A stretch of DNA of 30,070 bases from Promethearchaeota archaeon (GTDB lineage Archaea; Asgardarchaeota; Lokiarchaeia; Sigyniarchaeales; SOKP01): positions 1 to 30,070 of the forward strand of contig JBHLME010000051.1 of NCBI GenBank assembly GCA_048938445.1, in the 5' to 3' direction. Positions 2,604 to 30,070 of this stretch are shown here, piece by piece. Under the pieces are notes generated by a model. It worked only from the letters and a program-made list of their open reading frames with translations. It ran no database searches and was not told the origin of the DNA. The position numbers and the translations under genes are program-made. How positions within the stretch are numbered: the first letter of the stretch is position 1; each line of letters opens with the position of its first letter.

Positions 2604-2762
2604 GTTTACACTTATTCTTTCTACTTCCTTTATAATACATATTCAAGTTATAGGTTAAACAATAGTATATAAATTATCTTTTTAATATATAAATATTCTA
2701 ATGAAAAATTTTAAATCAATACATTACATATTCAATAATTATAGCCAAATTTTGTGAGTAGA

Positions 2763-3422
2763 ATGACAGGAGAAAAAAACGCCATAAATATTATTGATGA
2801 AGCTCTTGTAACTACAGATGAAATTTTTAAGAAGTTTAAGGATGTATTAATTACCGCAAGATCTGAAGTTCTTAACCTCGAGTCAAAAAAAAAACAAGCA
2901 GAAGAAGAAAAGAATAGATTAGAGGACCATGAAGCAGAATTAGAAGCTGAAAAAGCTAATTTAGAAGATATCAAAAAGCAATTAGAAGAAGAAACAAAAA
3001 AGTTAGAACAAGAAAAAAAAGAGAGAGATCAAAAGATTGGGGCAATGACAGAAGAACAAATGAGATTACTAGATGAATACGAGAAAGTAAAAGTTGAATT
3101 AAAGAAATTTGCTCAAGCAGCTGCAGAACATGAAGAATCAGAATTAAATTTTGAGAAAATTCAGGCCTTATTATCAATTTATAGGGTTTTAATTGAGGAA
3201 ATTTGGCAAGGACAAGCACATTATCGCATCCTACACGTTCTCCATGGAGATAAAGAAGAAATGAATCGAGAAGAATTGAAAAACTCAACAGGAGTAGGAG
3301 GTGCTTTTGTCTTGAGATCAGTTCAGGAGCTAGCACGCGTTGGTCTTATAGATTATAATGAAGATTTAGGAACATCTAAGTTAAAAAAAAGACTTTTTCC
3401 AAAAAAAGCGTTGGAAGAATAG
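2763..3422 (+). CDS. Long coiled-coil protein with C-terminal winged-helix-like domain, function unknown
   Basis: E/K-rich heptad region over about 100 aa, then HYRILHVLHGDKEEMNREELKNSTGVGGAFVLRSVQELARVGLIDY, a wHTH pattern. ATG at 2763 is preferred over the in-frame GTG at 2754. Confidence 0.8.
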   Translation: MTGEKNAINIIDEALVTTDEIFKKFKDVLITARSEVLNLESKKKQAEEEKNRLEDHEAELEAEKANLEDIKKQLEEETKKLEQEKKERDQKIGAMTEEQMRLLDEYEKVKVELKKFAQAAAEHEESELNFEKIQALLSIYRVLIEEIWQGQAHYRILHVLHGDKEEMNREELKNSTGVGGAFVLRSVQELARVGLIDYNEDLGTSKLKKRLFPKKALEE

Positions 3423-9560: not shown

Positions 9561-9971
9561 TTAAAATCCATCCCAGAATTTTTTAATTGGATCTTCTAAT
9601 TGATCTCCAATTTGATCCTCAAATTTCTGAAATATAGAGACATCATTATCCCATTGTTCAAAAAAACCTTCTGGAAATCGTTCAGTAAATTTATCAGCTA
9701 CTTTTTCTAATTCGGGAATAATTTTTTTCTCCTTATGTTTTTTATCACTATTCGAGACAAAAAATAAACCTTGTTTTTTTAATAAATTGAAGCGTTTATT
9801 ACTTAATTCAAAACTGGATAATCCTCCTTCTACAATGGTTTCTGCGAAGGTATTCAAAGCAGACATGAGCCCACCAAATAATTGATCACTTAAATGGGTA
9901 TCAAAAGTCCTATGATACAACACGACCCCCGTGTCCATTAAAATCCATAGATCTTGTATGACTTTTGCCAA
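9561..9971 (-). CDS. Stand-alone longin-like domain protein
   Basis: beta-beta-alpha-beta-beta-beta-alpha-alpha pattern: IQDLWILMDTGVVLYHR / DQLFGGLMSALNTFA / LSSFELSNKRFNLLKKQGLFFVSNS / LEKVADKFTERF...W.NDVSIFQKF, typical of Asgard longin-like proteins. Confidence 0.75.
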   Translation of the reverse strand: MAKVIQDLWILMDTGVVLYHRTFDTHLSDQLFGGLMSALNTFAETIVEGGLSSFELSNKRFNLLKKQGLFFVSNSDKKHKEKKIIPELEKVADKFTERFPEGFFEQWDNDVSIFQKFEDQIGDQLEDPIKKFWDGF

Positions 9972-10144: not shown

Positions 10145-10819
10145 TTAAAATAGACCTAAAGCATAAGCTAGAATGCTGAATTTTGCGATAAATATAAGGA
10201 TAAATACAAATATCCAAGTTAATGAGTAACCAATGAATTTGCCGATATATTTTTTCTCTTTAGGATCTATAGAAAAAGCTAGTATGTGTGGAGCTGTTGC
10301 TACAATAAATACTTGAGTGTAAACGATAGGTGCTGAAATGTTGTAAAATGTCATAAATTCAGAAGCTCCAGGTTGTATTCCTATTGCAAAATAAGCAGAA
10401 ATTACGAACATCTCTAAAAAAAGTAATAATACCATTGTAAAAATTATCGAAAATATTCTAATTATTTTTGTCCCTATAAAATTTCCTGATCTTTGCAATG
10501 CACTTTCTTTACTGTTGTCTTTGGACGCTAAGAACATAATAAATCTGACCAATTCATACCCGTCAATATTCAATTTCAAGAATGCTACAATAAAAATGGA
10601 AATGTAGAGAAATCGAAGAGGAGAATTTATTAATACAGAATAGAATATAGGGAATTCTAAGTATGGTACGATTGCCAACAACATCGATATTATTATGATA
10701 TTAGAACTAACTGATATTCCGAAAACAATGAAATACATTATTTTAAATGCCAATAAATTCGCTTTTGTTTCTATTATTTTCGTTTCTTTCAATGTTCTTT
10801 CTTCACTTTGACTTATCAT
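10145..10819 (-). CDS. Uncharacterised 5-TM membrane protein, paralog 1 of 3
   Basis: Five hydrophobic segments; shares YELVRF..FL, R..G.FIG.KIIRIF and QVF..A.APH...FS with the two neighbouring ORFs. Confidence 0.85.
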   Translation of the reverse strand: MISQSEERTLKETKIIETKANLLAFKIMYFIVFGISVSSNIIIISMLLAIVPYLEFPIFYSVLINSPLRFLYISIFIVAFLKLNIDGYELVRFIMFLASKDNSKESALQRSGNFIGTKIIRIFSIIFTMVLLLFLEMFVISAYFAIGIQPGASEFMTFYNISAPIVYTQVFIVATAPHILAFSIDPKEKKYIGKFIGYSLTWIFVFILIFIAKFSILAYALGLF

Positions 10820-10966
10820 CCTAAACCACTCATTATTATTTTTGATTTGTTTTGATTTCTTTAATTTTTTTAATTTAAACTTCGTTAATGGATAAGTTTT
10901 CGGGATTTAAATGCAATTTCTTATTGAAAACTTTAAATAAAAAAAATTAAAATGTATATATAAAAT

Positions 10967-10987
10967 AATATGGACTGATTTTTTACA
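10967..10987 (-). promoter_or_regulatory. Shared promoter element copy 1 (TGTAAAAAATCAGTCCATATT), directly upstream of a TATA box
   Basis: The + strand reads aatatggactgattttttaca; followed on the minus strand by ATTTTATATA; about 148 nt from the start at 10819. Confidence 0.75.
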
Positions 10988-11167
10988 AAAAAAGCAAATT
11001 ATAAAAAAACTCGTTCAGACATGACTTTATACCCTTTTTTATTAACTTATAACATCTTATATAATCTCTTAAGGTTATAACATAACAAAGATTTTTTAAC
11101 TTAATCCTGGAAATACTTGTACAAAATAAACTTTCTTAATTTAGTCTTAATCAAAAATTTAAATTCT

Positions 11168-11181
11168 AAAAAAAAAAAAAA
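11168..11181 (-). terminator. Oligo-T archaeal terminator
   Basis: 14-nt A run on + (T14 on -) immediately after the stop codon of 11182..11859. Confidence 0.6.
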
Positions 11182-11859
11182 TTAAAATACTTTAAAATAG
11201 AACATAAAAATACCATATTTGAAAGTCAATATTAGTATTAATATAGATATCCAAGTTAATGAATAAGCAATGAATTTACCCATATATTTATTATTCCTAG
11301 GTTCAATTGAAAATTTTAGTATGTGTGGAGCTGTCGCTGTAATAAATACTTGAATGTAGACGAAAGGTACGAAAATGAGGTAAAATGGTATAAATCCAAC
11401 CGCTTCAGGCATAAATTCTATTGTTAGGTACGTGTATACTACACTAAACTCCAAAGCGATTAATAATATCATCGTAAAAACAATAGAAAAGATTCTAATT
11501 ATTTTTGATCCAATAAAATCTCCTGATCTTTGCAATGCACTTTCTTTACTATTATCTTTAGATGCTAAGAATATTATATATCTCACTAATTCATACCCAT
11601 CAACTATCAGTTTTAAAAATGCTACAATAAGAATGTCAATGTATAGAAATCGTAAAGGAGAATCTATTAATAGATAATATAAACCAGGATATTCCAAAAA
11701 TGGCACGATTTCCAATAATCCAAATATTATTACGATATTAGAACTTAATGTTAATGCGAAAATTATGAAATTTATAATTTTAAATGCTAATAAATTTGCT
11801 TTTTTTTCTGTTAATTCCAGTGCTCGTTCTTCACTTCTTTCTTCAGTTTGACTTATCAT
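11182..11859 (-). CDS. Uncharacterised 5-TM membrane protein, paralog 2 of 3
   Basis: Highly similar to 10145..10819, e.g. identical FLASKDNSKESALQRSG. Confidence 0.85.
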   Translation of the reverse strand: MISQTEERSEERALELTEKKANLLAFKIINFIIFALTLSSNIVIIFGLLEIVPFLEYPGLYYLLIDSPLRFLYIDILIVAFLKLIVDGYELVRYIIFLASKDNSKESALQRSGDFIGSKIIRIFSIVFTMILLIALEFSVVYTYLTIEFMPEAVGFIPFYLIFVPFVYIQVFITATAPHILKFSIEPRNNKYMGKFIAYSLTWISILILILTFKYGIFMFYFKVF

Positions 11860-12004
11860 TCTAAACCACTAATTTTTTTTTGATTTGTTTTGATTTCATT
11901 AATTTTTTTAAATTCAATTTCGTTAATGGATAAGTTTTCTGGATTTAAATGCAAATTCATATTGAAAACTTTATATAAAAAAATATTAAATGCATATTTA
12001 AAAT

Positions 12005-12025
12005 AATATGGACGGATTTTTTACA
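12005..12025 (-). promoter_or_regulatory. Shared promoter element copy 2 (TGTAAAAAATCCGTCCATATT)
   Basis: The + strand reads aatatggacggattttttaca; followed on the minus strand by ATTTTAAATA. Confidence 0.75.
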
Positions 12026-12055
12026 AAAAATTTGATTTTAATGAAAGCAATATAT

Positions 12056-12727
12056 TTAATACACTATAAACCATCTTAGATCAAAGAAATTTATGAAAAG
12101 GAGTACAGCTATCCAAATATTTGAATAAACTATTATTTTAGTTATATATTGTCTTTTCTTATAATCTAAAGAAAAGGACATTAAATGTGGTGCTATAGCT
12201 TGAGTAAATACTTGAACACAGATAACCGGAGCAAATATCATATAAAATAACATAAATTCTGGAATCCCAAAATCTGAAGCTTCTGGTGGTCGAGGTCCTG
12301 ATAAAAATGCATCTGCTACTATTATACAAATTTTCATTACAATTATTAAAATAACCATAAAAACGAGGTAAAAAATTCTAATAATTTTAGTCCCTATAAA
12401 ACCCTTAGCTCTATGAATCGCACCCTCTGCATCCTTAATATTAGTTTTTAAGAATAACATAAATCTTACTAATTCATAAATGCTAACATTCATATTTATG
12501 AATGTTATTGTAATAATTATAATATATAGAGTCAGAGTATAATCAAAAAATATCCAGCGGAAAAGAGGGTAATCTAATTTTGGTGCAATCGTGAAAAATA
12601 TTGAGAGTATTATGATATTAAGGCTAAATGTTATTATAAAAATACAAAAATATAAGATCTGGAGCGCATTGAAATTTACTTTAATTTTTCGTTCTTTGAT
12701 CGTCTTTTTTTCCTGTTGACTTAACAT
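12056..12727 (-). CDS. Uncharacterised 5-TM membrane protein, paralog 3 of 3 (most divergent)
   Basis: Keeps YELVRFMLFL, HRAKGFIGTKIIRIF and QVFTQAIAPHLMSFS; has a Pro-rich loop insertion GPRPPEASDFG. Confidence 0.85.
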   Translation of the reverse strand: MLSQQEKKTIKERKIKVNFNALQILYFCIFIITFSLNIIILSIFFTIAPKLDYPLFRWIFFDYTLTLYIIIITITFINMNVSIYELVRFMLFLKTNIKDAEGAIHRAKGFIGTKIIRIFYLVFMVILIIVMKICIIVADAFLSGPRPPEASDFGIPEFMLFYMIFAPVICVQVFTQAIAPHLMSFSLDYKKRQYITKIIVYSNIWIAVLLFINFFDLRWFIVY

Positions 12728-12858
12728 CCTGAATCCCTTATTTATTTGTGATTATATTTTTTTTTAATTAGATTTCGCTATATAGAAGCATTTTAAATTA
12801 ATATGACCTATTTATTTAGAACTTTATTATAATAAAACAATTAGTATATATTTAAAAT

Positions 12859-12879
12859 AATATGGACTGATTTTTTACA
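12859..12879 (-). promoter_or_regulatory. Shared promoter element copy 3
   Basis: The + strand reads aatatggactgattttttaca; followed on the minus strand by ATTTTAAATATA. Confidence 0.75.
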
Positions 12880-13068
12880 TAAAAATTAGCGAAAAAAGTT
12901 ATCAAAATATGTTAATATATTTTTCATAATAATTACTTCATCCTATAATGCGGTCGGAGTTAAAACTATTTAAAAAAAAATGATTCATTATAAAATATTT
13001 TTATAGATTTTCCATAAAGTTTTTAATCTTTTCGTAGGAAAAAAAGAAATCAATTAATATTATTAAAC

Positions 13069-14481
13069 TCAATCATTGATAATATAAGGATCACATTTCC
13101 ACAGATCATTTAAATATCCCCAATCTCCATACTCGGGACACCCATAACCCCCAAAAAGCCAGAGATTATCATCGGAATCCGTCCAAGAAATGGCACTTTC
13201 TCTGCCCCCAGGATGAGTTTCCGTGTTTGGAATACCTTTCATACCATAGATGCCATATACTCCATTTGTTTTTTTTCCTGACATCCATGTCCAATTCACA
13301 CCATCATATTTCCATAAGTCGCTTAAATGTCCCCAACATCTTTGATCCAAAGATTGCCAACCTCCAAAAAGCCAGAGGTTATCATCCGAATCCGTCCAGG
13401 AAATGGAGTTTTTTCTGCATCCGGGAAAATTTGCTATATTTGGAATCCCCTTCGTACCATGAACGCCGCTTACACCACATGATTTGCTTCCCGACATCCA
13501 CGTCCAGTTCACACCGTCATATTTCCATAAATCATTTAAATATCCCCAGTCTCCATATTCGGGACACCCATAACCCCCAAAAAGCCAGAGATTATCATCG
13601 GAATCCGTCCAAGAAACAGCATTTTCTCTACCCCCGGGATAATTTAAAGAGTCTGGCACACCTCTCGTGCCATATACACCATTTACATCAGTAATTTTAC
13701 TTCCCGACATCCACGTCCAGTTCACGCCGTCATATCTCCAAAGGTCATTTAACCATAGAGAATGTCCATATTCCGGACGCCCATTACCTCCAAAAAGCCA
13801 GAGATTATCATCGGAATCCGTCCAAGAAATGGCATATTCTCTACCCCCGGGACAATTCAAAGAATTTGGCACACCTCTCGTTCCATATACGCCACTTACA
13901 CCACATAATGTGCTTCCTGACATCCACGTCCAGTTCACGCCGTCATATCTCCATAAATCATTTAAAAAATCTACAGTATACCGCTCTGAACGTCCTCCAA
14001 AAAGCCAGAGATTATCATCGGAATCCGTCCAAGAAACGGCACCTTCTCTACCCCCGGGACAATTTGAAGAGTCTGACACACCTTTCGATCCATATACACC
14101 ATTTACATCTGCAATTTTACTTCCCGACATCCACGTCCAGTTCACGCCGTCATATTTCCATAAATCATTTAAATATCCCTGTTCTCCCGTTTCTGGATAC
14201 CCATAACCTCCAAAGAGCCAGAGATTATCATTAGAATCTGTCCAAGAAACGGCACCCTTTCTACTCCCAGGATAATTATTTGCGCTTGGAACACCTTTCA
14301 AACCATACACACCATTTAGATTAACTGTATTACTTCCCGAAATCCACATCCATTCAATGTAGGAATAATCATTAGGAAAAAAAGTAGAAACGTAGAAAGA
14401 TCCTAAGATTCCAAGAGATGTTCCACCCATGATCAAACCGATAAAAATTGCTATATACTTTTTTCCACTTCCATTTACCAT
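13069..14481 (-). CDS. Membrane-anchored/secreted kelch-repeat beta-propeller protein (6 blades)
   Basis: N-terminal KK plus hydrophobic helix; six ~71-aa repeats W.WMSG...GVYG..G.P....PG.R..A.SWTDSDDNLWLFGG....L.DLW.YD with the kelch GG/Y/W signature. Confidence 0.9.
   Translation of the reverse strand: MVNGSGKKYIAIFIGLIMGGTSLGILGSFYVSTFFPNDYSYIEWMWISGSNTVNLNGVYGLKGVPSANNYPGSRKGAVSWTDSNDNLWLFGGYGYPETGEQGYLNDLWKYDGVNWTWMSGSKIADVNGVYGSKGVSDSSNCPGGREGAVSWTDSDDNLWLFGGRSERYTVDFLNDLWRYDGVNWTWMSGSTLCGVSGVYGTRGVPNSLNCPGGREYAISWTDSDDNLWLFGGNGRPEYGHSLWLNDLWRYDGVNWTWMSGSKITDVNGVYGTRGVPDSLNYPGGRENAVSWTDSDDNLWLFGGYGCPEYGDWGYLNDLWKYDGVNWTWMSGSKSCGVSGVHGTKGIPNIANFPGCRKNSISWTDSDDNLWLFGGWQSLDQRCWGHLSDLWKYDGVNWTWMSGKKTNGVYGIYGMKGIPNTETHPGGRESAISWTDSDDNLWLFGGYGCPEYGDWGYLNDLWKCDPYIIND
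13090..14350 (-). repeat. Intragenic tandem repeat, six units of 213 bp (one spacing of 207 bp)
   Basis: Anchor ccaaa(a/g)agccagag starts at 13151, 13364, 13577, 13790, 13997 and 14210. Confidence 0.92.
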
Positions 14482-14570
14482 TTTTAAACATTACCTGTAT
14501 TTTGACTTTATTTTGCTTTTTTTTATAATTTCGACATTTGGTTTATTATCCATGTGATTATATTTAAAAC

Positions 14571-14591
14571 AATATGGAAGGATTTTTTACA
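14571..14591 (-). promoter_or_regulatory. Shared promoter element copy 4 (kelch gene)
   Basis: The + strand reads aatatggaaggattttttaca; followed on the minus strand by GTTTTAAATATA; 90 nt from the ATG at 14481. Confidence 0.72.
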
Positions 14592-14719
14592 AAAAAAAAA
14601 AGTAAATAACAAAAAACTTGGGCAGATAGGTTTTGTCCACTATTTTATTAATATGTAACATCTTTTGATTTCTTAAACCTATAACTTATCAGACATTTTA
14701 TCTCATTTATGGTATTATT

Positions 14720-14740
14720 TGTAAAAAATTAGTCCATATT
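14720..14740 (+). promoter_or_regulatory. Shared promoter element copy 5 (inverted; faces the Zn-ribbon membrane gene)
   Basis: TGTAAAAAATTAGTCCATATT on + followed by GATTTATTAA (TATA-like); 96 nt from the ATG at 14836. Confidence 0.72.
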
Positions 14741-14835
14741 GATTTATTAATGAACTTGGAATTATTTTTAATAAGGAATTATTTTAACATAAAAGCGAAA
14801 CCAAAAGATAGAAAAAATAATGAAAGTGAATTAAC

Positions 14836-15879
14836 ATGTATGATTTTTGTATTAAATGTGGTGAAAAAAAATTAGAGGATAATACTAATTATTGCTTGAA
14901 ATGTGGGAGCCCTCTTTTCCCCAAAAGTCAAAATAACAAATCTACTATTCTTTTACTAGAATCTGTTGATCAAGATGATCAACCTAACCAATTAGAGGAG
15001 TTAAATGGCAAAATTCATGATGTTTATGTTAAAAATAAAAAAAGAGTTTACATTGGTGCGGTTCTATTTTTAGTTGCATTAACCTTAGACCTTACTATAT
15101 TTAATAGAGCTATATCTTCAATTTCAGTTATTCCAATTGAACCAATAATGGTAATTGCGGTTATAATCATTTTAACAGGTCTTAGAAGAAAAGGGAAAGG
15201 AATAATGTTAAACTTAATTGGAGTAGTATTAGTTGTATTGACATCTTTAATAGTTATATTTTATAATGTGTCTCCTGAATTTGTCGAATTGAAGATAGAT
15301 ATAGGTTTTATATTAATAATTATATGGGTAATTGCCTTTCATTTGCCCGGAATGTGGATTTTAATGAATAAAGGTAAAAATAGATTTTTATTACTTATAC
15401 TTAGTCTTATATTTTGTACTATATTATCATCGATGCCGTTATTTCTATTCCTTCCAATTGAATGGTTGGATTTATCATTTTTTATAAGTGCTCTTCTATT
15501 AGGCTTTTGGATTTTACTTATTGTAATTCCAGGGTATTATCTTTTAAAGAAGAATGAAAAAAAAATTAAATGGATTCTTTGGTTAGATTTAATTGGTATA
15601 ATGATATATGTAGGAATGGTAATTTATATTCCTATAAAGTATAGCACCTCTACAATTTATACTCCTGGTTATATCCCCCCACCTTGGTTTGAACTTCCAG
15701 ATTTGAACTTTCGAGACTTTTTTTTCGATAATTTATGGAATAACATTCTAATTGGATTTGGTATAGGTTTTGCTATATTTTGTGGTGTTTTATTGTTAAT
15801 AGTTGGTATTGGTATAGCTTTTGAGGATCTAATAGACAATATTAAGACCTATAATAGGAAGAAATCTAAAAATAATTAA
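14836..15879 (+). CDS. Zinc-ribbon-containing polytopic membrane protein
   Basis: N-terminal CIKCG...NYCLKCG zinc ribbon, polar linker, then about 8 hydrophobic helices. Confidence 0.85.
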   Translation: MYDFCIKCGEKKLEDNTNYCLKCGSPLFPKSQNNKSTILLLESVDQDDQPNQLEELNGKIHDVYVKNKKRVYIGAVLFLVALTLDLTIFNRAISSISVIPIEPIMVIAVIIILTGLRRKGKGIMLNLIGVVLVVLTSLIVIFYNVSPEFVELKIDIGFILIIIWVIAFHLPGMWILMNKGKNRFLLLILSLIFCTILSSMPLFLFLPIEWLDLSFFISALLLGFWILLIVIPGYYLLKKNEKKIKWILWLDLIGIMIYVGMVIYIPIKYSTSTIYTPGYIPPPWFELPDLNFRDFFFDNLWNNILIGFGIGFAIFCGVLLLIVGIGIAFEDLIDNIKTYNRKKSKNN

Positions 15880-16050
15880 AAAAAGCTTTTTAGATTATAT
15901 TAAATTATCTAAATTTTTCATTTTTTATTTATTTATTCATTCTATAACCTCTATTGTAGTTTTTGATAAATATAGTTGAGTTTTACGTTATACATGACAA
16001 TTAGTTTAATTTATAATTCATTTAAGATTACATTTGTAAAATTTCTGCAA

Positions 16051-17358
16051 TTATTCAGGTGATTGTTCTTCTGCGTCTTCATCAAAATTTATTTCTTTTT
16101 CATCCTTTAATTCCTTGTATAACTCTAAAAAATCATCATGAGAACTCACGGGCGAGCGAATTAATTCAGCTTTAATCTGTTCCAAGTCCTCCTCGTTCTG
16201 AAAAATCTGATTATATTTATCATTAAGCTGTAAGGGAATTTTCGCATACTCCTTTGAGACCAAGAGAGGGTGGCGTTCAGTCGGGATGATTCTGTAAGGG
16301 AAATTCGAGAAATATTTGTCAATGAGTAAATAAGCAGGTTCATAACGTTTCTTGTCCTTACAAGAGGTCTTTAAAAGGTATTCAAATTGCTCTTCAAAAT
16401 CGATGGTAAAATTTTTGACACAATCTCGTAGAAGAATCGAAGATTTAGAGGTTGCTAAACCAACCGTGATGAATTTAGAATCATATACTATTAAAATACC
16501 TTCCTGCAAGTTGATATCTAATAGTCGCCCCACATGCATCACCTTCTCGCTCATTATTTGCACAGCATTTATGAATCCCGCGAAAATATTTTCACCTATT
16601 TCAGATTCGGACCAATCATGATCAAATAAGGGAAAACCATCATGATCCTTTACCACAATCCTGTGGACGATGAACGGAAGGATATAGAATAATTTGGGTT
16701 CCATTATGAAAATATAGATAAAAACAGACCATCCTATTATCAAAATTATATCAGAGAATATAACAAATGTAGGATGTAAATATATAAGAAATAAAAATAT
16801 CAAACTATTGGGTAAAATTAACAGTGTTGTAATAAGTAGAATCGATGCTTCTTTTTTATATAAGAATGGAGTGTTATTCCAAACTAAAATACTCCAATAT
16901 AATAGAAAAATAAATAATATTAATGTGTATATAACAACTAAAAAATCAAATATACCTATAGATGCAAATTTAGTATAACCAAAAATAGGAACACTAATTT
17001 GCTCTATCGAATCAGGTAAAAAAGCGAAAATTACGAAAATAGGACTAAATACGCATGTTATAATCAATTCAGTAGAATATATTGTCTCTTTTTTTGACAA
17101 GCTTATAAAAAGTATAAAAAATATTAAAAGAGGTATATAAAATAAAAAAGATAATTGACTAAGAAACACAATTAAAAATAAGTCCGCCAGACCTTCAAAG
17201 AGCCAAGTTAAAAACATAAATAAAAAAGTTAATTTAATTGCGATTAATGATTTAAATTTAATATCTCTGAGTTTCAAATGAAAAATAACTAATCCTAATA
17301 ACATTATGAATGCAGCACAAAAATTAATAATTATTTCAATAGACCAGTTTATTGCCAT
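16051..17358 (-). CDS. 7TM-longin fusion membrane protein, copy A
   Basis: Seven hydrophobic helices in the first ~220 aa, then a longin-like domain (HRIVVKDHDGFPLFDHDW...IFAGFINAVQIMS...LLDINLQEGILIVYDSKFITVGLAT...LRDCVKNFTIDFEEQF) and an acidic tail. GAGGT SD site overlaps the upstream stop. Confidence 0.8.
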   Translation of the reverse strand: MAINWSIEIIINFCAAFIMLLGLVIFHLKLRDIKFKSLIAIKLTFLFMFLTWLFEGLADLFLIVFLSQLSFLFYIPLLIFFILFISLSKKETIYSTELIITCVFSPIFVIFAFLPDSIEQISVPIFGYTKFASIGIFDFLVVIYTLILFIFLLYWSILVWNNTPFLYKKEASILLITTLLILPNSLIFLFLIYLHPTFVIFSDIILIIGWSVFIYIFIMEPKLFYILPFIVHRIVVKDHDGFPLFDHDWSESEIGENIFAGFINAVQIMSEKVMHVGRLLDINLQEGILIVYDSKFITVGLATSKSSILLRDCVKNFTIDFEEQFEYLLKTSCKDKKRYEPAYLLIDKYFSNFPYRIIPTERHPLLVSKEYAKIPLQLNDKYNQIFQNEEDLEQIKAELIRSPVSSHDDFLELYKELKDEKEINFDEDAEEQSPE

Positions 17359-17374
17359 TTTATTTACAATACCT

Positions 17375-18130
17375 CTACATTTCCATTGATATTAAATTAA
17401 CTTCCTGATTATTTTGCATATTATTTACAATATTAGTAATCACTTCACTTATTAAAGCCCTTTTATTCAATTTTATGGATAATCTCTTCTCACCTTCAGG
17501 TGAAGGGGATATTATTCCATATTTTGTTAATTTCTTTAAACGATAATAAACCTTTTCCCTTTCAAGATTCAATTCTTTGTATATAATTGCTCTATTTATC
17601 TCTTTTTTATCTAGTATTAATTTAACTATAGCCCTATTTAAACCATCACTTAAGATGAAATAAAGCATTCCTTCCTCATCGCTCACCTCAACGGGAAGAA
17701 AAATAGTATAATTATTTACTTTTACCTTTTTTACTAAATTGAATTTGATTAATTTTTCTAAGTGCCAAACTAAATGACCAACACCTATTTCATGATCTTT
17801 ATATCTCGCACACGTCTCTTTTAACGAGGAAAAATGGATTCCTATATTAGTCTTAATAATCCTGTAAATAAATTGTCGAAAGTTATTCTTTAAAATCGTC
17901 TCATTCGTGAATCTTGATCCATCTACTAATATTTTTCTATTTATTAGCATTTGAATAATAGTTTTAAGCCCACTACGAGGAATTTTTAATTTTTTCTTAG
18001 CTCTATTGTATAATAATTCGGTATTGATTAACCTGTGTTCTTTGGTGAGCTCTACCGCAACATCTATTACTTGTTGAACAGTTGGGTGGTCTAATCCTAA
18101 AGAAAGAGGATACTTTTTCTCTATACACAT
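17375..18130 (-). CDS. Multi-winged-helix (COG3398-like) transcription regulator, copy A
   Basis: RQFIYRIIKTNIGIHFSSL...GHLVWHLEKL and RAIVKLIL...EREKVYYRLKKL wHTH domains plus an N-terminal wH. Start moved to ATG 18130 (MCIEKKYPLSL), which gives 251 aa, the same length as the paralog. Confidence 0.85.
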   Translation of the reverse strand: MCIEKKYPLSLGLDHPTVQQVIDVAVELTKEHRLINTELLYNRAKKKLKIPRSGLKTIIQMLINRKILVDGSRFTNETILKNNFRQFIYRIIKTNIGIHFSSLKETCARYKDHEIGVGHLVWHLEKLIKFNLVKKVKVNNYTIFLPVEVSDEEGMLYFILSDGLNRAIVKLILDKKEINRAIIYKELNLEREKVYYRLKKLTKYGIISPSPEGEKRLSIKLNKRALISEVITNIVNNMQNNQEVNLISMEM

Positions 18131-18181
18131 TAGGCAATCATATATAATGGTGAGAATCGAATTGACATAAATGTAAATTGC

Positions 18182-18208
18182 ATATTGATATAAAATCGTT
18201 ATCAATAT
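18182..18208. promoter_or_regulatory. Inverted repeat ATATTGATA-N9-TATCAATAT overlapping a TATA-like box, candidate operator
   Basis: Perfect 9-bp arms; conserved at the equivalent position of the duplicated module (20400-20426). Confidence 0.55.
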
Positions 18209-18292
18209 TAATAAAGATTACTCATGATTAACTAATTGTTAGATATCAAATTTAATGATTATTTTAAAATATTAATAATTCAAATTTAGAGA

Positions 18293-19573
18293 TTATTCCG
18301 GTATTGATTCTTCGGTTTTTTCATCAAAATTTATTTCTTTTTCATTCTTCAGCTCATTATATAACTCTAAAAAATCATCATGAGAACTCAAGGGTGAGCG
18401 AAGCATTTCAGTTTTTATCTGTCCCAAATCTTCTTCGTTCTGAAAAATCTGATTATATTGATTATCAAGTTGTAAAGGAATTTTCCCATATTCACTTGAG
18501 ACCAACAGATTTTGATGTTTACTAGTTATGATTCCATAAGGGAAATTAGAGAAATGTTTATCAATAAGCAGATAAGCTCGTTCATACATTTTCTTTTCCC
18601 TGCAAGATGTCTTTAGAAGATATTCAAATTGTTCTTCAAAGTCCAGGGCAAAATTTTTAAGGCAATCTCTGAGGAGTTTCGAGGATTTAGAGACTGCAAG
18701 ACCAACTGTAATGTATTTTGAATAATATACAATTAAAAACCCTTCTTGTAATTTAATATCTAATAACCGACCGACATGCATTACCTCTTGGCTCATTATT
18801 TGAAGAGCAGATATGAATCCCGCGAAAATATTTTCTCCTATATTAGATTCCGACCAATCATGATCAAATAAAGGAAAGCCATCATTATCCTTTACTACAA
18901 TCCTGTGGACATTTAAAGGAAGAATATAAAACAATTTAGGTTCTATCATTAAGATTATTATCATAATAGCTTCAAAAAGAATAAATAGTATTTGTGATAA
19001 GTAGACAAGAACATGAATCCAAATTGCTAGAAAACTTATGAGATAAGCAATGGGGATCAGAATTAGTATACAGAGAAAAAATGTCAGTGCTTCTAGTTTG
19101 TATAAAAATGGAGAATTTCGCCAAATAATAGTACCTCCATAGACTATAAAAATTGCAAATATCGTATTCATTATATTATTGAATAAGCTTAATAATTCCA
19201 ATGAATTGGGTAAAAAGGATATTACAATATTCACAGGCATACATATGCATAATAGAATTAAAGGAATGGAATATGGTGATTCTTTTGTTGACAAGTTAAG
19301 ATAAATTACAAATAAGATAACCTTTGGTAAGACCAATAGAGATGATAAATGAGCAAGGAAATATGATAAGTCAGCAAGGAGGGAATTCATAAGTAAACCT
19401 GCTATACTTTCTAATAACCATCGTATGCTTACAAATAAAATACATAATTGAAAGAATTTTATAGATTTAAAATTAAAATTTTTAAGTCTTAAATAGAATA
19501 CAACCAATAATACAGATGTTATAATTGCATGAGTTAAATACACGATTACTTCAATAGACCAGTTTAATGTCAT
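18293..19573 (-). CDS. 7TM-longin fusion membrane protein, copy B
   Basis: Same architecture as 16051..17358; C-terminal longin half nearly identical, TM half divergent. Confidence 0.8.
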   Translation of the reverse strand: MTLNWSIEVIVYLTHAIITSVLLVVFYLRLKNFNFKSIKFFQLCILFVSIRWLLESIAGLLMNSLLADLSYFLAHLSSLLVLPKVILFVIYLNLSTKESPYSIPLILLCICMPVNIVISFLPNSLELLSLFNNIMNTIFAIFIVYGGTIIWRNSPFLYKLEALTFFLCILILIPIAYLISFLAIWIHVLVYLSQILFILFEAIMIIILMIEPKLFYILPLNVHRIVVKDNDGFPLFDHDWSESNIGENIFAGFISALQIMSQEVMHVGRLLDIKLQEGFLIVYYSKYITVGLAVSKSSKLLRDCLKNFALDFEEQFEYLLKTSCREKKMYERAYLLIDKHFSNFPYGIITSKHQNLLVSSEYGKIPLQLDNQYNQIFQNEEDLGQIKTEMLRSPLSSHDDFLELYNELKNEKEINFDEKTEESIPE

Positions 19574-19589
19574 TTTTATTTCTATACCT

Positions 19590-20345
19590 CTATATTTCCA
19601 TTGATATTAATTTAAGTTCCTGATTATCTTGTAAATCATTTAAAATATTAGTTATAACTTCATTTATTAAAGCTCTTTTACTCAATTTTATGAATAATCT
19701 TTTCTTATTTTCAGGTGAAGGGGATATTACTCCATATCCAATCAAATTCTTAATACGATAATAGATCTTTTCCCGTTCAATGCTTAATTCTTTGTATATG
19801 TCTGATCTTTTTATTTCTTTTCTTTCCAATATTAATTTCACTATAATTCTATTTAGATCATCACTCAAAATAAAATATAACATTCCTTCCTCATCGCTCA
19901 TTTCAACGGGAAGAAATATCGTAAAATTCTTCACTTTTAATTTTTTTACTAAATTGAATTTAATCAGCTTTTCTAAGTGCCAAACCAAATGACCAACGCC
20001 TATTTCACTATCTTTATATTTCGCACACGTCTCTTTTAAGGAGGAAAAATGGATTCCTTTATTGGTCTTGATTATACTATAAATAAATTTTCGAAACTTG
20101 TTTTTTAATATCGTCTCTCTCGTGAATTTTGAACCATCCACTAAAATTTTTCTGTTTATTAACATTTGAATAATAATTTTCAGCCCACTTCGAGGAATTT
20201 TTAGTTTCCTCTTAGCTCTATTATATAATAATTCGGTATTAATTAATTTATGCTCTTTTGTGAGCTCTACCGCAACATCTATTACTTGTTGAACGCTTGG
20301 GTGGTCTAATCCTAAAGAAAGAGGATACTTTTTTTCTTTATACAT
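19590..20345 (-). CDS. Multi-winged-helix (COG3398-like) transcription regulator, copy B
   Basis: Close paralog of 17375..18130; very basic. Confidence 0.85.
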   Translation of the reverse strand: MYKEKKYPLSLGLDHPSVQQVIDVAVELTKEHKLINTELLYNRAKRKLKIPRSGLKIIIQMLINRKILVDGSKFTRETILKNKFRKFIYSIIKTNKGIHFSSLKETCAKYKDSEIGVGHLVWHLEKLIKFNLVKKLKVKNFTIFLPVEMSDEEGMLYFILSDDLNRIIVKLILERKEIKRSDIYKELSIEREKIYYRIKNLIGYGVISPSPENKKRLFIKLSKRALINEVITNILNDLQDNQELKLISMEI

Positions 20346-20399
20346 TAGACAATCATTTAATATTATAATTAATACAAAATTGACATTAATGTAGATTTC

Positions 20400-20426
20400 C
20401 TATTGATATAAAATCAGTTTCAATAT
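20400..20426. promoter_or_regulatory. Second copy of the candidate operator (cTATTGATA-N9-TtTCAATAT)
   Basis: Homologous to 18182-18208, with the arms slightly degenerate. Confidence 0.5.
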
Positions 20427-20523
20427 TAATAAAGATTTCTCATAGATTGCTAATTATTTAATATCAAATTTGATTCATTTATTGCTTTATTTTATATATT
20501 AATTCTATTAAGTTTGATATGAT

Positions 20524-20778
20524 TCAACTATAATGTTCAATATCTATAATACCTAATAGAATAAAGAAGATAAATCCGCATCCAAAAGCTGCTCCTAGAT
20601 ACAACCAAAAATAGTCTCTAAAATTTTGGAAAAACAGATCATAAGGAAAAGGAGCAAAGTCTTGTCCCCAATTTCTAACAATCATCGAAACTGTAAAAGC
20701 AGGAATCACAAACAAAGCAATAATTGACACAATTAATCCTATAATTACGTAGGTAAGTACTCTATATTGTGGTTTCAT
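20524..20778 (-). CDS. Small 2-TM membrane protein
   Basis: Two hydrophobic helices; strong SD (GGGTGA) before the ATG; preceded by a copy of the shared promoter element. Confidence 0.8.
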   Translation of the reverse strand: MKPQYRVLTYVIIGLIVSIIALFVIPAFTVSMIVRNWGQDFAPFPYDLFFQNFRDYFWLYLGAAFGCGFIFFILLGIIDIEHYS

Positions 20779-20856
20779 TTGATTTCACCCAAATACAATT
20801 CTTTAACTTTAATTTTAAAGAATTATAAAATAAATATTTTTTTTTGTATTTAAATC

Positions 20857-20877
20857 GATATGGTAGGATTTTATACA
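20857..20877 (-). promoter_or_regulatory. Shared promoter element copy 6 (degenerate, TGTATAAAATCCTACCATATC)
   Basis: The + strand reads gatatggtaggattttataca; followed on the minus strand by GATTTAAATA, the same spacing to TATA as in the other copies. Confidence 0.62.
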
Positions 20878-27612: not shown

Positions 27613-28020
27613 CTAATCTTCGAATAAGTCTTGAAAGTTATATCCAAGAACTTTTGAAAGTTTATCTAATTCCTTCTTTGTATAATTACTTTCTAGTTCA
27701 CTATTGCTAATTTTCCTCAAATCTTCAATCCTTCTCCTATCCATACCCGTTTCATCAGCTATCCTTTCCAATTCATCGATTGTAGTACTTCCTATTATAT
27801 CTCTAATAACTGGTTCTAAAAAGAAAATATCCTCGGTCGGCTTATCAAAAATTCTTGCGATATTTAACGATAAAGTAAGTTTAGGTGTATATGTACCCTT
27901 CTCTAAATAGTAAATGGTCTGGCGAGACACTCCCAAGAGCTTTGCCAAATCTTGCTGTTGCATGTCTTGTTCCTCTCGGAGTTCTTTTATTCTTGATACT
28001 AATTTTTCTCTAAAGCGCAC
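27613..28020 (-). CDS. XRE/Cro-family transcription regulator (COG1476-like N-terminal HTH plus second HTH-like domain)
   Basis: RIKELREEQDMQQQDLAKLLGVSRQTIYYLEKGTYTPKLTLSLNIARIF; GTG start with an AGGCGA SD-like site. Confidence 0.9.
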   Translation of the reverse strand: MRFREKLVSRIKELREEQDMQQQDLAKLLGVSRQTIYYLEKGTYTPKLTLSLNIARIFDKPTEDIFFLEPVIRDIIGSTTIDELERIADETGMDRRRIEDLRKISNSELESNYTKKELDKLSKVLGYNFQDLFED

Positions 28021-28091
28021 CTATTTCTCGCCTTCCATTACGGTATAAAATTTTAATTTTACTTTAAATAATTAAATAAAAAAACTAAATT

Positions 28092-28931
28092 TTAGGTTAA
28101 CTCAAAGAGATCTTCGATCTTACAATTTAATACTCGAGCAATTTTATAAGCTAATGCTAAACTTGGATTGTATCGTCCTTCTATTAAGTAATTTATTGTT
28201 TCAATGGGTACCCCAACCTTTTCTGCTAGGTCTGATTCCGTGAAGTTTGCATTTTCCATGCGTTCCTTAATTGTAGTTCTTAGTTTTTCACCTTCTCGCA
28301 TTTTTGACATGATATAACTTATGAAATTATCAAATGCGAGTTCTTCTGGTTTAAAGATCTTATCTTCCAATCCACTGGGAATCTGCGAATATTTTGTCAA
28401 CATTTCATTAATTTTATTTTCAATGACATGTGGATCCTTTAATCCAGGGATATATCCTTCAGGTCTAATTTTTCCTCCCTGTCCTCCTCCAGCACCACTT
28501 GATCCCGCTGTTTCAATTTTAACAGTAAAAATTTTAAACATCCTGTCGAAAATTCCATTTACAATCGTAATATTCTGTATTCTACTATAAGGAATGGTAG
28601 CTCTAGTGCGAGTCAGGACACCATGATTAACTATAATCTTATCCTCTATGATTCTATAAGAAAATCTTCGGACATAAGCCGAATAATATATAGCAGTTAA
28701 GATCACCGCCGCAATATAAGGAATAATGCCTCCTAACACGATAATCCAGAGAGACCATTCCAATCCTAAATTAAATTCCGCCTCAACTATATCAATGCCT
28801 ATGATCATTAATACAATCCATAGCAAGTTTGGGACAATAATCAAGCCATAAATAAAGAAATTTTTTAGAATTTGTTTTTTTCTGAAATCTCTTGAGATTG
28901 TTCCTTCATATGAAAGCTCATCTTTACTCAT
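28092..28931 (-). CDS. Membrane protein: 2 TM + bacterial PH domain (bPH_2/YdbS-like) + C-terminal XRE HTH
   Basis: SYRIIEDKIIVNHGVLTRTRATIPYSRIQNITIVNGIFDRMFKIFTVKIETAG is the bPH_2 pattern; LAEKVGVPIETINYLIEGRYNPSLALAYKIARVL is an XRE HTH. Confidence 0.87.
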   Translation of the reverse strand: MSKDELSYEGTISRDFRKKQILKNFFIYGLIIVPNLLWIVLMIIGIDIVEAEFNLGLEWSLWIIVLGGIIPYIAAVILTAIYYSAYVRRFSYRIIEDKIIVNHGVLTRTRATIPYSRIQNITIVNGIFDRMFKIFTVKIETAGSSGAGGGQGGKIRPEGYIPGLKDPHVIENKINEMLTKYSQIPSGLEDKIFKPEELAFDNFISYIMSKMREGEKLRTTIKERMENANFTESDLAEKVGVPIETINYLIEGRYNPSLALAYKIARVLNCKIEDLFELT

Positions 28932-29001
28932 TTTTTAATTTTTCACCTTTTTTTTTTTATTGTTTTAAATTTTATAAAATTAAAAAAAATTAATTAATTA
29001 A

Positions 29002-29748
29002 TTAAGTTTTTCCGTGCCTCTTGAATAGTAGTATTGCAATTATAATTATGACCATTGTAATGATCAAATTAATAGCAAAATCAATCCAAATATTAAAATT
29101 GGTCAAAGCAATTCCATCAAAGATTAGTGTTAAAGCATCCATAGGATAATAGACTGGCATGAATTTTCTAAATAATTCTGCTTCAGGAAGTGTAAAAAAC
29201 ATTATATTTAGCTGTGGCATGCTATAAAGATTCGCATATCCAGATCCATTTTGAATGGTTTTAGCCAGAATTGCACATATAAGTCCAAATCCAATTGTAC
29301 CTATATAAAAAATCGTTATAATTAAACCTGCCAACGCGATTCCTGCAACACTTGCATTATACTGAAAACCAGTGAGAGCTATGAATACTGATAGTAATCC
29401 GATTTGCACAATAGCTATAATGCTGTTTGTAATAATAACACTTCCTAAAAATTCTTTAGCAGTAGTCGGTGTAGTGTATATTCTTTTTAACAATCCTTCT
29501 CCTTTTACCTGAGAGAATGATATAGAAACAAATATCATACCTACAAGAGCGGGCATTACAAGTAATCCTGGAACCATTGTATCAAATATGGTCTTTCCAG
29601 ACATTGGAACGGACACTTTTCCAGTAAACAAGTATAACATACCACCTATCATTAGAGGAAAGAGTAATAGCATTACAAGATAACCTGGTTGCCTCATTAG
29701 TTTTTTAAATTGAATATTTAAACTGGCCATAACTCTTTGCGTCTTCAT
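29002..29748 (-). CDS. ABC-2 type exporter permease
   Basis: Six TM helices; MVPGLL, GEGLLKRIYTTP and FMPVYYPMDAL motifs; ATGA overlap with the ATPase gene. Confidence 0.9.
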   Translation of the reverse strand: MKTQRVMASLNIQFKKLMRQPGYLVMLLLFPLMIGGMLYLFTGKVSVPMSGKTIFDTMVPGLLVMPALVGMIFVSISFSQVKGEGLLKRIYTTPTTAKEFLGSVIITNSIIAIVQIGLLSVFIALTGFQYNASVAGIALAGLIITIFYIGTIGFGLICAILAKTIQNGSGYANLYSMPQLNIMFFTLPEAELFRKFMPVYYPMDALTLIFDGIALTNFNIWIDFAINLIITMVIIIIAILLFKRHGKT

Positions 29749-30070
29749 TGTTCAATCCCCTCCAAGATTCTTCTTCCTGTTATTTTTATGAATACTTCTT
29801 CCAAATTTTTAGATTCATGCATTTCCATTAATTCTTTTGGAGTACCTACTGCAACTAACTTTCCATAATCAATAATTGCGACTCTATCGCAGAGTATTTC
29901 AGCTTCTTCGATATAATGAGTCGTTAAAATGATTGTTTTATCAGTTTGCTTTAAGGATCCTATAAAATTCCATATAGCTCGTCGAGCTCGTGGATCCATT
30001 CCGACTGTAGGTTCATCTAAAAAGAGAATTTGTGGATCATTTATTAATGCAATTAGGAGATTTAATTTTC
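29745..30070 (-). CDS. ABC transporter ATP-binding protein (DrrA-like), C-terminal part; 5' end outside the window
   Basis: The frame stays open to the edge: KLNLLIALINDPQILFLDEPTVGMDPRARR (Walker B/D-loop), LTTHYIEEAE (H-loop), LEEVFIKITG. Confidence 0.95.
   Translation of the reverse strand, partial: KLNLLIALINDPQILFLDEPTVGMDPRARRAIWNFIGSLKQTDKTIILTTHYIEEAEILCDRVAIIDYGKLVAVGTPKELMEMHESKNLEEVFIKITGRRILEGIEQ

Follow-up and report, generated by a model that had tools for sequence, protein, structure and literature searches.

A polar promoter element and its candidate regulator–sensor cassette in a Promethearchaeota genome

Two archaeal regulators, TFB-RF1 of Pyrococcus furiosus and ArnR of Sulfolobus acidocaldarius, are the described systems closest to the one treated here, which comprises a promoter element, termed class A, and a neighbouring gene pair, or cassette, encoding a candidate transcription factor and a candidate membrane sensor. 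Both lie in a 30,070-nucleotide (nt) stretch of DNA from a Promethearchaeota archaeon (contig JBHLME010000051.1 of assembly GCA_048938445.1), called the window below, which is one whole contig of a 4.63-Mb draft genome with 29.6% GC. The relatives of the window genes are labelled Promethearchaeota or Lokiarchaeota in public records.

The site of TFB-RF1 (PF1088) is a 13-nt palindrome, TCTGAANTTCAGA, or TCTG-N5-CAGA (PMC5937170, available text). The two systems are alike in having a site that precedes a weak transcription factor B (TFB) recognition element (BRE) and a good TATA box closely and at a constant distance, a regulator that is co-encoded with a partner gene and heads its own operon, a transporter target, and an element conserved across a family. 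However, the class-A site is polar, spans 16-20 nt, reaches into the BRE slot and is at best a loose pseudo-palindrome. The class-A proteins also differ, being a tandem winged helix-turn-helix (wHTH) protein and a partner with seven transmembrane helices (7TM) and a longin domain, and the targets are mostly surface genes. The likeness is one of layout and proposed mode of action.

ArnR and ArnR1 are single chains of a helix-turn-helix (HTH), a HAMP domain, a sensor and two transmembrane (TM) helices, with 15-base-pair (bp) inverted repeats, lying further upstream than the class-A site, and a fragment from -43 to -84 given for their promoters in the accessible part of PMC6396743. They resemble the proposed class-A system in being membrane-linked archaeal activators of surface structures. 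In class A, by contrast, sensor and factor are separate genes, and there is a single polar site without inverted repeats. The ArnR/ToxR-like design is closer to sibling class C, described below, in which a surface domain, a TM segment and a wHTH form one chain.

In Asgard archaea, longin domains occur fused with GTPases and two-component domains (Liu et al., bioRxiv 10.1101/2020.10.19.343400; Tran et al., PMC10933270; both in their available text), and the class-A sensor is like them in joining a longin to a sensor-type domain. The available portions of these two sources mention no 7TM-longin protein with a transcription factor and no DNA site. Likewise, 7TM proteins are named among Asgard families in the accessible text of bioRxiv 10.64898/2026.10.28.762692, and no Asgard factor-site pair appears in that of PMC12993045, PMC13466386 or bioRxiv 10.64898/2026.09.06.749720. 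Neither an Asgard regulon with matched factor and site nor this element or cassette was found in the literature searched, most subscription journals and supplements being outside its scope; the 7TM-longin family may be among the entries of supplements, above all of the tables of Asgard protein families by Liu et al. The candidate factor can also be compared to HTH_HVO_0163_N (PF24266), a family of uncharacterized archaeal tandem wHTH proteins, which its middle domain matches below the cut-off, but it has an extra N-terminal domain. For HVO_0163 itself one paper was listed, a proteomics study. The regulatory logic of the class-A system is already known; its parts and its lineage are new.

The class-A element and its promoters

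An earlier note on the window had described a 21-bp element just upstream of the TATA box at six places (10967-10987, 12005-12025, 12859-12879, 14571-14591 and 20857-20877 on the minus strand and 14720-14740 on the plus strand). All six were confirmed, and their orientation follows that of the gene. The target gene starts 78-147 nt from the end of the 21-mer at all six, instead of the 79-148 nt first given, and the independent copies number five, since the sites at 10987 and 12025 come from one duplication (157 nt, 90%). The complete element has the consensus TGTAAAAWWTYVKWCC, followed by 7 nt (TWATNNN) and a TTTAWATA TATA box. Its copies in the window are as follows.

10957..10987, minus strand: class-A element, 7-nt spacer and TATA box, for the gene at 10145-10819; 38.3 bits
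11995..12025, minus strand: class-A element, spacer and TATA box, for the gene at 11182-11859; 39.2 bits
12849..12879, minus strand: class-A element, spacer and TATA box, for the gene at 12056-12727; 38.5 bits
14561..14591, minus strand: class-A element, spacer and TATA box, for the kelch-propeller gene; 40.8 bits
14720..14750, plus strand: class-A element, spacer and a weaker TATA box, for the gene of the Zn-ribbon membrane protein; this site and the one at 14591 stand back to back; 32.0 bits
20847..20877, minus strand: class-A element, spacer and TATA box, for the gene of an 84-amino-acid (aa) protein with two TM helices; 33.5 bits

A 21-nt matrix made from the six window copies finds 7 sites of at least 20 bits in the 4.63-Mb genome and 0 in the reversed genome. 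A 31-nt matrix that includes the TATA box, which was iterated from 11 seeds chosen by eye and is partly circular, finds 15 sites in the whole genome at 30.7-40.8 bits, with the next best at 18.9; the reversed-genome control has 0 matches at 20 bits and 2 at 15 bits. Left out one at a time, the 15 sites score 23.7-39.6 bits. The same 15 rank top (19.6-40.4 bits; reversed-control maximum 19.6) with a second matrix, built from 75 sites of relatives that had themselves been found with the first. All 15 are intergenic and oriented toward a gene, and the spacing from CC to TTTA is 7 nt in every one, which bears out the positional bias beside the TATA box that the earlier note had expected. As that note had also said, the element does not precede the chaperone or metabolic genes: no further position in the rest of the window exceeds 7.1 bits.

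The conserved core measures 16-20 nt, and the ATATT tail of the 21-mer is mostly specific to the window copies. The TATA box of the 14720 site is poorer (TTTATTAA). Apart from the one duplicated pair, the similarity between window copies ends at the edges of the element (0.71-0.97 within it and 0.30-0.55 in the flanks). At 80 related loci, 72 matches fall at this 7-nt spacing and at most 8 at any other, and conservation extends to position -4 (T at -7, 0.82; T at -4, 0.96). Reversed cores before TATA boxes form no peak in this genome, with at most 2 per spacing.

The element is not a general archaeal BRE, since it is found at 15 of the 3043 genes with an upstream gap, and CC at -9/-8 is present in just 24 of 775 other TATA-anchored promoters. 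The ordinary BRE signal of this genome is AAA at -5 to -3 (152/1260 anchors compared to 113/1260 at a control offset), a signal that is itself weak in such AT-rich DNA. This AAA, taken as the mark of the 6-7 nt rich in purines or AAA that a general BRE has directly before TATA, is seen in none of 100 element promoters, compared to 152 of 1260 others. By themselves, the element promoters would be weak.

The regulator–sensor cassette

The gene pair of wHTH and membrane protein, with a 16-nt gap between the two genes, occurs twice in the window.

19590..20345, minus strand: candidate cognate factor 1, a tandem winged-helix protein of 251 aa that adjoins elements
18293..19573, minus strand: candidate sensor 1, with a seven-helix membrane domain, a longin and a helical tail in the structure model; 426 aa
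17375..18130, minus strand: candidate cognate factor 2, a tandem wHTH protein that shares 82% identity with factor 1 and, read from the ATG at 18130, has 251 aa
16051..17358, minus strand: candidate sensor 2, a 7TM-longin protein of 435 aa, 56% identical to sensor 1

Factor 1 has two clear wHTH domains (about residues 73-152 and 150-245) with a third helical domain in front. The window proteins match PF24266 at E values of 6e-6 to 2e-5 (25-26.7 bits, cut-off 31), many of their homologs carry the Pfam label, and factor 1 also matches TrmB below cut-off (3e-4). Its structure model (predicted local distance difference test, pLDDT, 90.6) finds ArsR/MarR/Fur-type winged helices at Z scores of 10-11.8. 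Foldseek gives one match at E below 0.001, to the tandem winged helices of ESCRT-II (TM score 0.26). NCBIfam and PDB sequence searches of the proteins return generic HTH matches only, and a metagenome scan with the window wHTH gave 369 pattern matches, of which 0 were confirmed. The class-A wHTH has no TM helix. A third copy, on contig C139, is divergent from another site, so that all three class-A wHTH genes of the genome adjoin sites, compared to none of 11 more distant paralogs, which have no site within 5 kb (best 9.4 bits).

The gap from the gene of the 84-aa protein to the wHTH gene is 178 nt, and a 97-nt stretch containing imperfect palindromes is 82% kept upstream of both wHTH genes (18160-18256 and 20378-20474). 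The gap and the duplicated stretch leave room for a separate cassette promoter, and the stretch may be that promoter or another operator. Autorepression through a reversed site before the window wHTH genes was considered and rejected, the best core scores being -3.5 to -7.5. In relatives, sites directly upstream of the wHTH gene occur. Sites divergent from the wHTH were considered for use in both directions, and 12 of 27 have a TATA-like word beyond their other end, with spacings of 4-10.

The membrane domain of the candidate sensor can be compared to two kinds of protein. Residues 1-225 of sensor 2 superpose over the whole domain, from residue 5 to 225, on Atlas models bearing HisKA_7TM (PF16927), with TM scores of 0.70-0.75; these are predicted models, and the scores lie under the Atlas naming bar. 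The Pfam cut-off of PF16927 is not reached: one of 29 full-length members matches at E 0.0024, and one of ten isolated domains at 2.7e-4 (21.3 bits, cut-off 28.6, residues 13-216). The other comparison is with 7TM proteins of the G-protein-coupled receptor (GPCR) topology, whose seven-helix bundle of about 200 residues is also alike (ACER3, Z 14.7, root-mean-square deviation (rmsd) 3.4, 195 aligned; mGlu2, Z 13.0; Ste2, Z 12.4; rmsd 3.4-3.6 overall), although a Z of that size is common for helical bundles by arrangement alone. Identity to those proteins is 6-14%, the sensors have no conserved CREST zinc-binding histidines (at most 17% His in any membrane-domain column of 29 sequences), and no G-protein gene was seen in the cassette. 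Judged on these models, the prokaryotic HisKA_7TM domain is the nearer relative.

In sensor 1, which is without a 16-residue loop present in aligned relatives, the part after the membrane domain has a longin fold by structure comparison of the model (Sec22b, Z 13.9, rmsd 2.5, 120 aligned; VAMP7, Z 13.5). Foldseek places it nearest AP-sigma (best E 1.7e-3), TRAPP folds are also alike, and neither window sensor has a Pfam longin match. HisKA_7TM proteins differ in having a kinase or GGDEF domain as output. On the predicted structures, the sensor is a HisKA_7TM-like domain with a longin and helical tail in the usual position of the kinase.

The element and the cassette occur together in relatives. 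A strict form of the pattern is present in 9 of 60 relatives, with 0 control matches, and in four of these the site touches the same cassette. Among a first set of 26 cassette loci, 15 have a site at a threshold of 14 bits, with no reversed match at 9 bits in 305 kb. The test set consisted of 60 loci from the top of the sensor-match list (E at most 4e-148), minus those already fetched and five others; 55 of them have a site, 53 within 400 nt of the cassette, and the reversed maximum is 10.5 bits in 623 kb. The cassette itself is found in many different neighbourhoods. The loci without a site mostly belong to an expanded clade in one genus and to two other families. At control loci with distant homologs, 15 of 16 have no site, and the single match is of a sibling class.

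The same association is seen at the level of genomes. A strong sensor match (E at most 1.2e-104) was obtained in 60 of the 134 genomes of the family, and 45 of these 60 have the strict pattern, compared to 8 of the 74 others, among which nine with weak or partial matches are counted. The trend holds within the two large genera (21/28 compared to 1/26, and 18/22 compared to 4/20) and in the rest (6/10 compared to 3/28). Of the eight exceptions, G147 has the wHTH and G156 a sensor fragment. Where the wHTH gene is apart from the sensor gene, the site stays with the wHTH (L086, L174, L195, L235, L236 and L239), and variants of the site track wHTH clades. A second wHTH of G072 is nearest the window's clade, and its site is CCTTCC-type, like the distant sites of that genome. 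The layout of the window is met again on contig C91 of G025, where membrane genes grouped around one cassette are preceded by six matches of 10-23 bits. The sugar-ABC locus L250 (G142:C149) has no wHTH gene, no site was found at it, and its sensor match is incomplete and contains a stop; a joint loss of wHTH, sensor and site is possible there.

These associations bear on the identity of the reader of the element. The earlier note had proposed a dedicated activator or an alternative TFB; for the first, the local wHTH is now a named candidate, and the second has lost ground. A TFB could read the element as an extended BRE, and the genome has 15 full TFB paralogs and a divergent 415-aa one, on 16 contigs. 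One site lies just downstream of a TFB gene (C190), CC at -9/-8 is common to three promoter classes, and paralogous TFBs can direct distinct regulons with different BRE-TATA spacing (bioRxiv 10.64898/2026.09.06.749720, available text). However, the C190 TFB or a sister paralog is present in 124 of 135 genomes compared to 54 with the pattern, only that TFB clade having been profiled, and the C190 TFB was rejected as the factor because it is near-universal. In addition, one of 1033 open reading frames (ORFs) at cassette and site loci is a TFB, and it is the wHTH that the element follows. The contacts of TFB extend only about 7 bp upstream of TATA, and an additional domain that could span 23 bp is lacking in all 15 full paralogs. 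A TFB as the reader of the whole element is therefore very improbable, although a TFB may well read the shared CC. Four of the TFB paralogs (C7, C57, C67 and C182) have altered recognition helices.

Whether the sensor acts on the wHTH is a separate question. In a predicted complex, sensor residues 218-416 and the wHTH score 0.60 compared to 0.00 for the best control, with agreement between runs in at least 63% of contacts and partner pLDDT of at least 81. Of 157 solved pairs, 116 reach the scoring mark, as do 2 of 215 mismatched pairs; among those that reach it, only 18 solved pairs but both mismatches lie at or below 0.60, so the score gives weak support for contact. The wHTH could activate while the 7TM-longin protein is a co-regulated neighbour, or works by another route such as a small GTPase, and does not bind it. 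This would suit the weak score, the several class-A wHTH genes that have no adjacent sensor gene in the available DNA and the pairing of Asgard longin domains with GTPases (PMC10933270, accessible portion). It is nevertheless quite improbable, as the wHTH and sensor genes are neighbours at all 60 test loci (which were selected on the sensor), were duplicated jointly in the window, stay together with their order swapped at L072, L080 and L081, and form a natural fusion of 676 aa in one record.

Sibling classes and the proposed mechanism

Listing all promoters with WWCC-N7-TTTWWA brought out two sibling classes. Class B (TWCTTCA-N6-TWCC-N7-TATA) has 25 promoters above threshold and 34 genome matches at 20 bits, compared to 0 in the reversed genome. 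Its loci include L254 (C32:6733-13657), C80:4079, C163:4527, C43 and C68:8367, and many of its targets are surface or membrane genes. Three class-B promoters surround a wHTH paralog on C32, and eight related wHTH paralogs could share the class-B element. Class C (GGGAAAGTTTATWCC-N7-TATA) has three promoters (L255, C71:47182-49087; L256, C145:14141-16156; and C57:34284), two of which head operons with a surface-domain/TM/wHTH fusion. Class-C homologs reach other families, including the single-contig genomes G044, G050 and G055, in which tests may be easier.

Each class of wHTH keeps company with its own element. The A element is present at 22 of 29 class-A loci, where B and C are found at none. 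Close class-B loci have A, B and C at 0, 9 and 1 of 10, and distant ones at 0, 3 and 0 of 6. At the class-C loci the counts are 1, 0 and 29 of 29, the C matrix having been built from only three sites and the loci being the best 29 of the C matches listed. All three wHTH classes have the same CC-N7-TATA register. The LxWHL helix of the middle domain is common to the paralogs and the recognition helix of the last domain differs, which fits a shared WCC half and a class-specific half of the element. Class C probably explains some stray class-A-like matches in G009 and G011. A fourth candidate class (ATCATACC) merged into classes A and B on iteration, and CTATCATACC-N7-TATA, at C112:30313 and C226:13744 (minus strand) before a uvrB-like gene and an 82-aa gene, is no separate class.

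These classes also bear on whether the repeats need a dedicated factor at all. They could be recombination or integration sites, or promoter copies hitch-hiking at a hypervariable locus, given that large surface genes come and go behind the cassette site, that the site is on both sides at L123 and L131, that 36 of 135 sites head no sizeable ORF and that two window sites have 157 nt in common. Against this, similarity stops at the element edges in all but the duplicated pair, a TATA box is always present 7 nt further on, nine sites on other contigs precede unrelated genes that have paralogs without the element, and three wHTH clades go with three different elements. Judged from these features, such an origin has very little probability.

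Judged from sequence, it is fairly likely as a whole that the class-A tandem wHTH binds the element and activates transcription, gated by the 7TM-longin sensor. The parts of this model differ in strength. The wHTH very probably binds as a single chain, in which a family-wide domain would read the TATA-proximal WCC half and a variable domain the class-specific 5' half. It probably activates, and by analogy with TFB-RF1 would do so by recruiting TFB and the TATA-binding protein (TBP) to the weak BRE, a reading favoured by the constant spacing, the single orientation and the lack of the AAA BRE. The 7TM-longin protein would hold or release the wHTH through its cytoplasmic longin and tail on a signal from outside or from the membrane, in a kinase-free relay of two proteins; gating this direct is plausible and only slightly favoured. 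The signal is guessed to be a surface or membrane cue because of the kinds of target. The site at 20877 may drive the cassette through the 84-aa gene, which would create positive feedback, in the manner of the sites directly upstream of the wHTH gene in relatives. The output would be a shifting repertoire of adhesin-like propellers at the surface and of membrane proteins, joined at one type of locus by a sugar ABC importer, with genes entering the regulon by gaining the element.

The wHTH could instead be a repressor, its footprint from -23 to -4 covering part of the BRE and blocking TFB, with the sensor sequestering it to lift repression. The conserved TWAT at -7 to -4 lies within the BRE slot, the nearest solved folds of the wHTH are ArsR/MarR-type repressors, and regulators bound inside promoters hinder TFB or TBP (PMC5937170, available text). 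However, invariant spacing and a single orientation suggest contact with TBP or TFB rather than a steric block, and reversed cores show no peak before the TATA boxes of this genome. Promoters without the AAA BRE would be weak unaided, and three paralogous classes keep the same register. Repression is thus unlikely.

Several observations weigh against the activation model. There is no site at 14 bits at 11 of the 26 first-set loci and 5 of the 60 test loci, and the class-A wHTH was not found in six pattern-bearing genomes: G003 (4 sites; 83% complete), G011 (96%), G080, G129, G140 and G149 (95%). Many test loci are orthologous within two genera, which means that the counts overstate independence, and co-inheritance can explain the co-variation of site and protein. 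The conserved bases within the BRE slot, down to -4, suit a repressor as well. Some targets in this genome are cytoplasmic (3/15), 36 of the 135 sites have no same-strand ORF of at least 70 aa within 450 nt, and the sensor-wHTH fusion is known from a single record.

A broader proposal, and a tentative one, is that Promethearchaeota (Loki) possess a promoter code resembling that of sigma factors. Single-chain tandem wHTH activators would dock at WCC, 7 nt before the TATA box, and their variable domain would pick TGTAAAA in class A, TWCTTCA in class B and GGGAAAG in class C; each class would have a link to the membrane, which in class A would be a seven-helix receptor with a longin tail that contacts the factor directly, without a kinase or G protein. 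If true, this would be the system that controls the variable coat on the surface of these cells, and no longin domain before it would have served as an adaptor between receptor and transcription factor. It would give one of the many orphan Asgard longin domains a concrete job, the passing of a receptor signal to a transcription factor, and would unite a GOLPH3/GPP34 homolog with dozens of uncharacterized surface proteins in one regulated group, a point of relevance to surface change in Asgard archaea. Asgard cells are slow-growing and hard to manipulate; the three predicted factor-site pairs lend themselves to in vitro tests with a soluble protein of 250 aa and an oligonucleotide of 31 bp.

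Target genes and neighbouring features

The six targets in the window are as follows.

10145..10819, minus strand: multi-TM protein, paralog 1; 224 aa, no Pfam family
11182..11859, minus strand: multi-TM protein, paralog 2; 225 aa, 63% identical to paralog 1
12056..12727, minus strand: multi-TM protein, paralog 3; 223 aa, 43% identical to paralog 1
13069..14481, minus strand: N-terminally anchored kelch beta-propeller; 470 aa, Kelch_3 E 3e-20
14836..15879, plus strand: zinc-ribbon and 8-TM protein; 347 aa, Zn_Ribbon_1 E 5.5e-4, below cut-off
20524..20778, minus strand: 84-aa 2-TM protein, just upstream of the regulator-sensor cassette on the same strand

The first three had been described as 5-TM paralogs; they are indeed paralogous membrane proteins, though hydropathy gives them 4-6 helices. 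Their family is headed by the element in two other genomes (L086 and L186). No similarity could be demonstrated between the 84-aa protein and the 83-aa 2-TM target of L174. Beyond the window, the nine targets on other contigs are three SBBP propellers, an LVIVD-repeat surface protein of 1223 aa, another surface protein, with two anchors, a sugar-binding protein whose gene comes first in the set for an ABC importer, an SDR-type reductase, a homolog of GPP34/GOLPH3 and an unknown protein of 161 aa. The GPP34/GOLPH3-family gene with its class-A site is at L007:5587-6282 (G000 C158; E 1e-8, above cut-off).

That non-homologous envelope genes have this promoter-proximal element in common, as the earlier note proposed, is borne out by a predicted membrane helix in 12 of 15 targets compared to 765 of 2971 background genes, two paralog trios reducing the independence of this count. 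The trend is the same in relatives (70 of 80 non-regulator targets compared to 168 of 766 neighbours), where nine further targets are the wHTH gene itself. Simple inheritance of the element with target families was rejected: it is absent from all five other full-length kelch paralogs tested, from 7 of 10 SBBP-family genes and from 5 of 7 C98/C152-family genes. Since paralogs mostly lack the element, genes were recruited to the regulon singly. The proposal that the six window genes form one co-regulated envelope system has to be broadened to take in the nine targets elsewhere and the three cytoplasmic ones. The six genes are lineage-specific cargo around a conserved regulator-sensor cassette, not one conserved system.

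At L114-L157, in two genera, the cassette has a fixed place near Vps4/ESCRT-III-like genes (named by the look of their translations), and the slot behind the site holds varying surface genes of 580-1450 aa. A conserved GGGAGA-N4-8-GGYGAAATC motif lies there at a distance of 45-75 nt beyond the site after the sensor gene, and in many cases no gene comes next. One variant closes a hairpin before a T run; a structured RNA was rejected, since 18 sequences give no consensus pairs. The motif may be what is left of the start of a cargo gene that has been lost, or it may belong to a small RNA.

Other window genes lie outside the set. A stand-alone longin-like protein (9561-9971, minus strand; Fuz_longin_1 E 5e-4, below cut-off) is encoded just downstream of the target cluster and has no element. 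The gene at 2754-3422 (plus strand) encodes a long coiled coil followed by a MarR-like winged helix. The region at 27613-29999 (minus strand) contains ABC-2 exporter genes, then a bPH_2 and XRE-HTH fusion and a second XRE-HTH gene, and is located upstream of a grpE-dnaK-dnaJ-clpB-like run, the chaperone names being taken from the translations.

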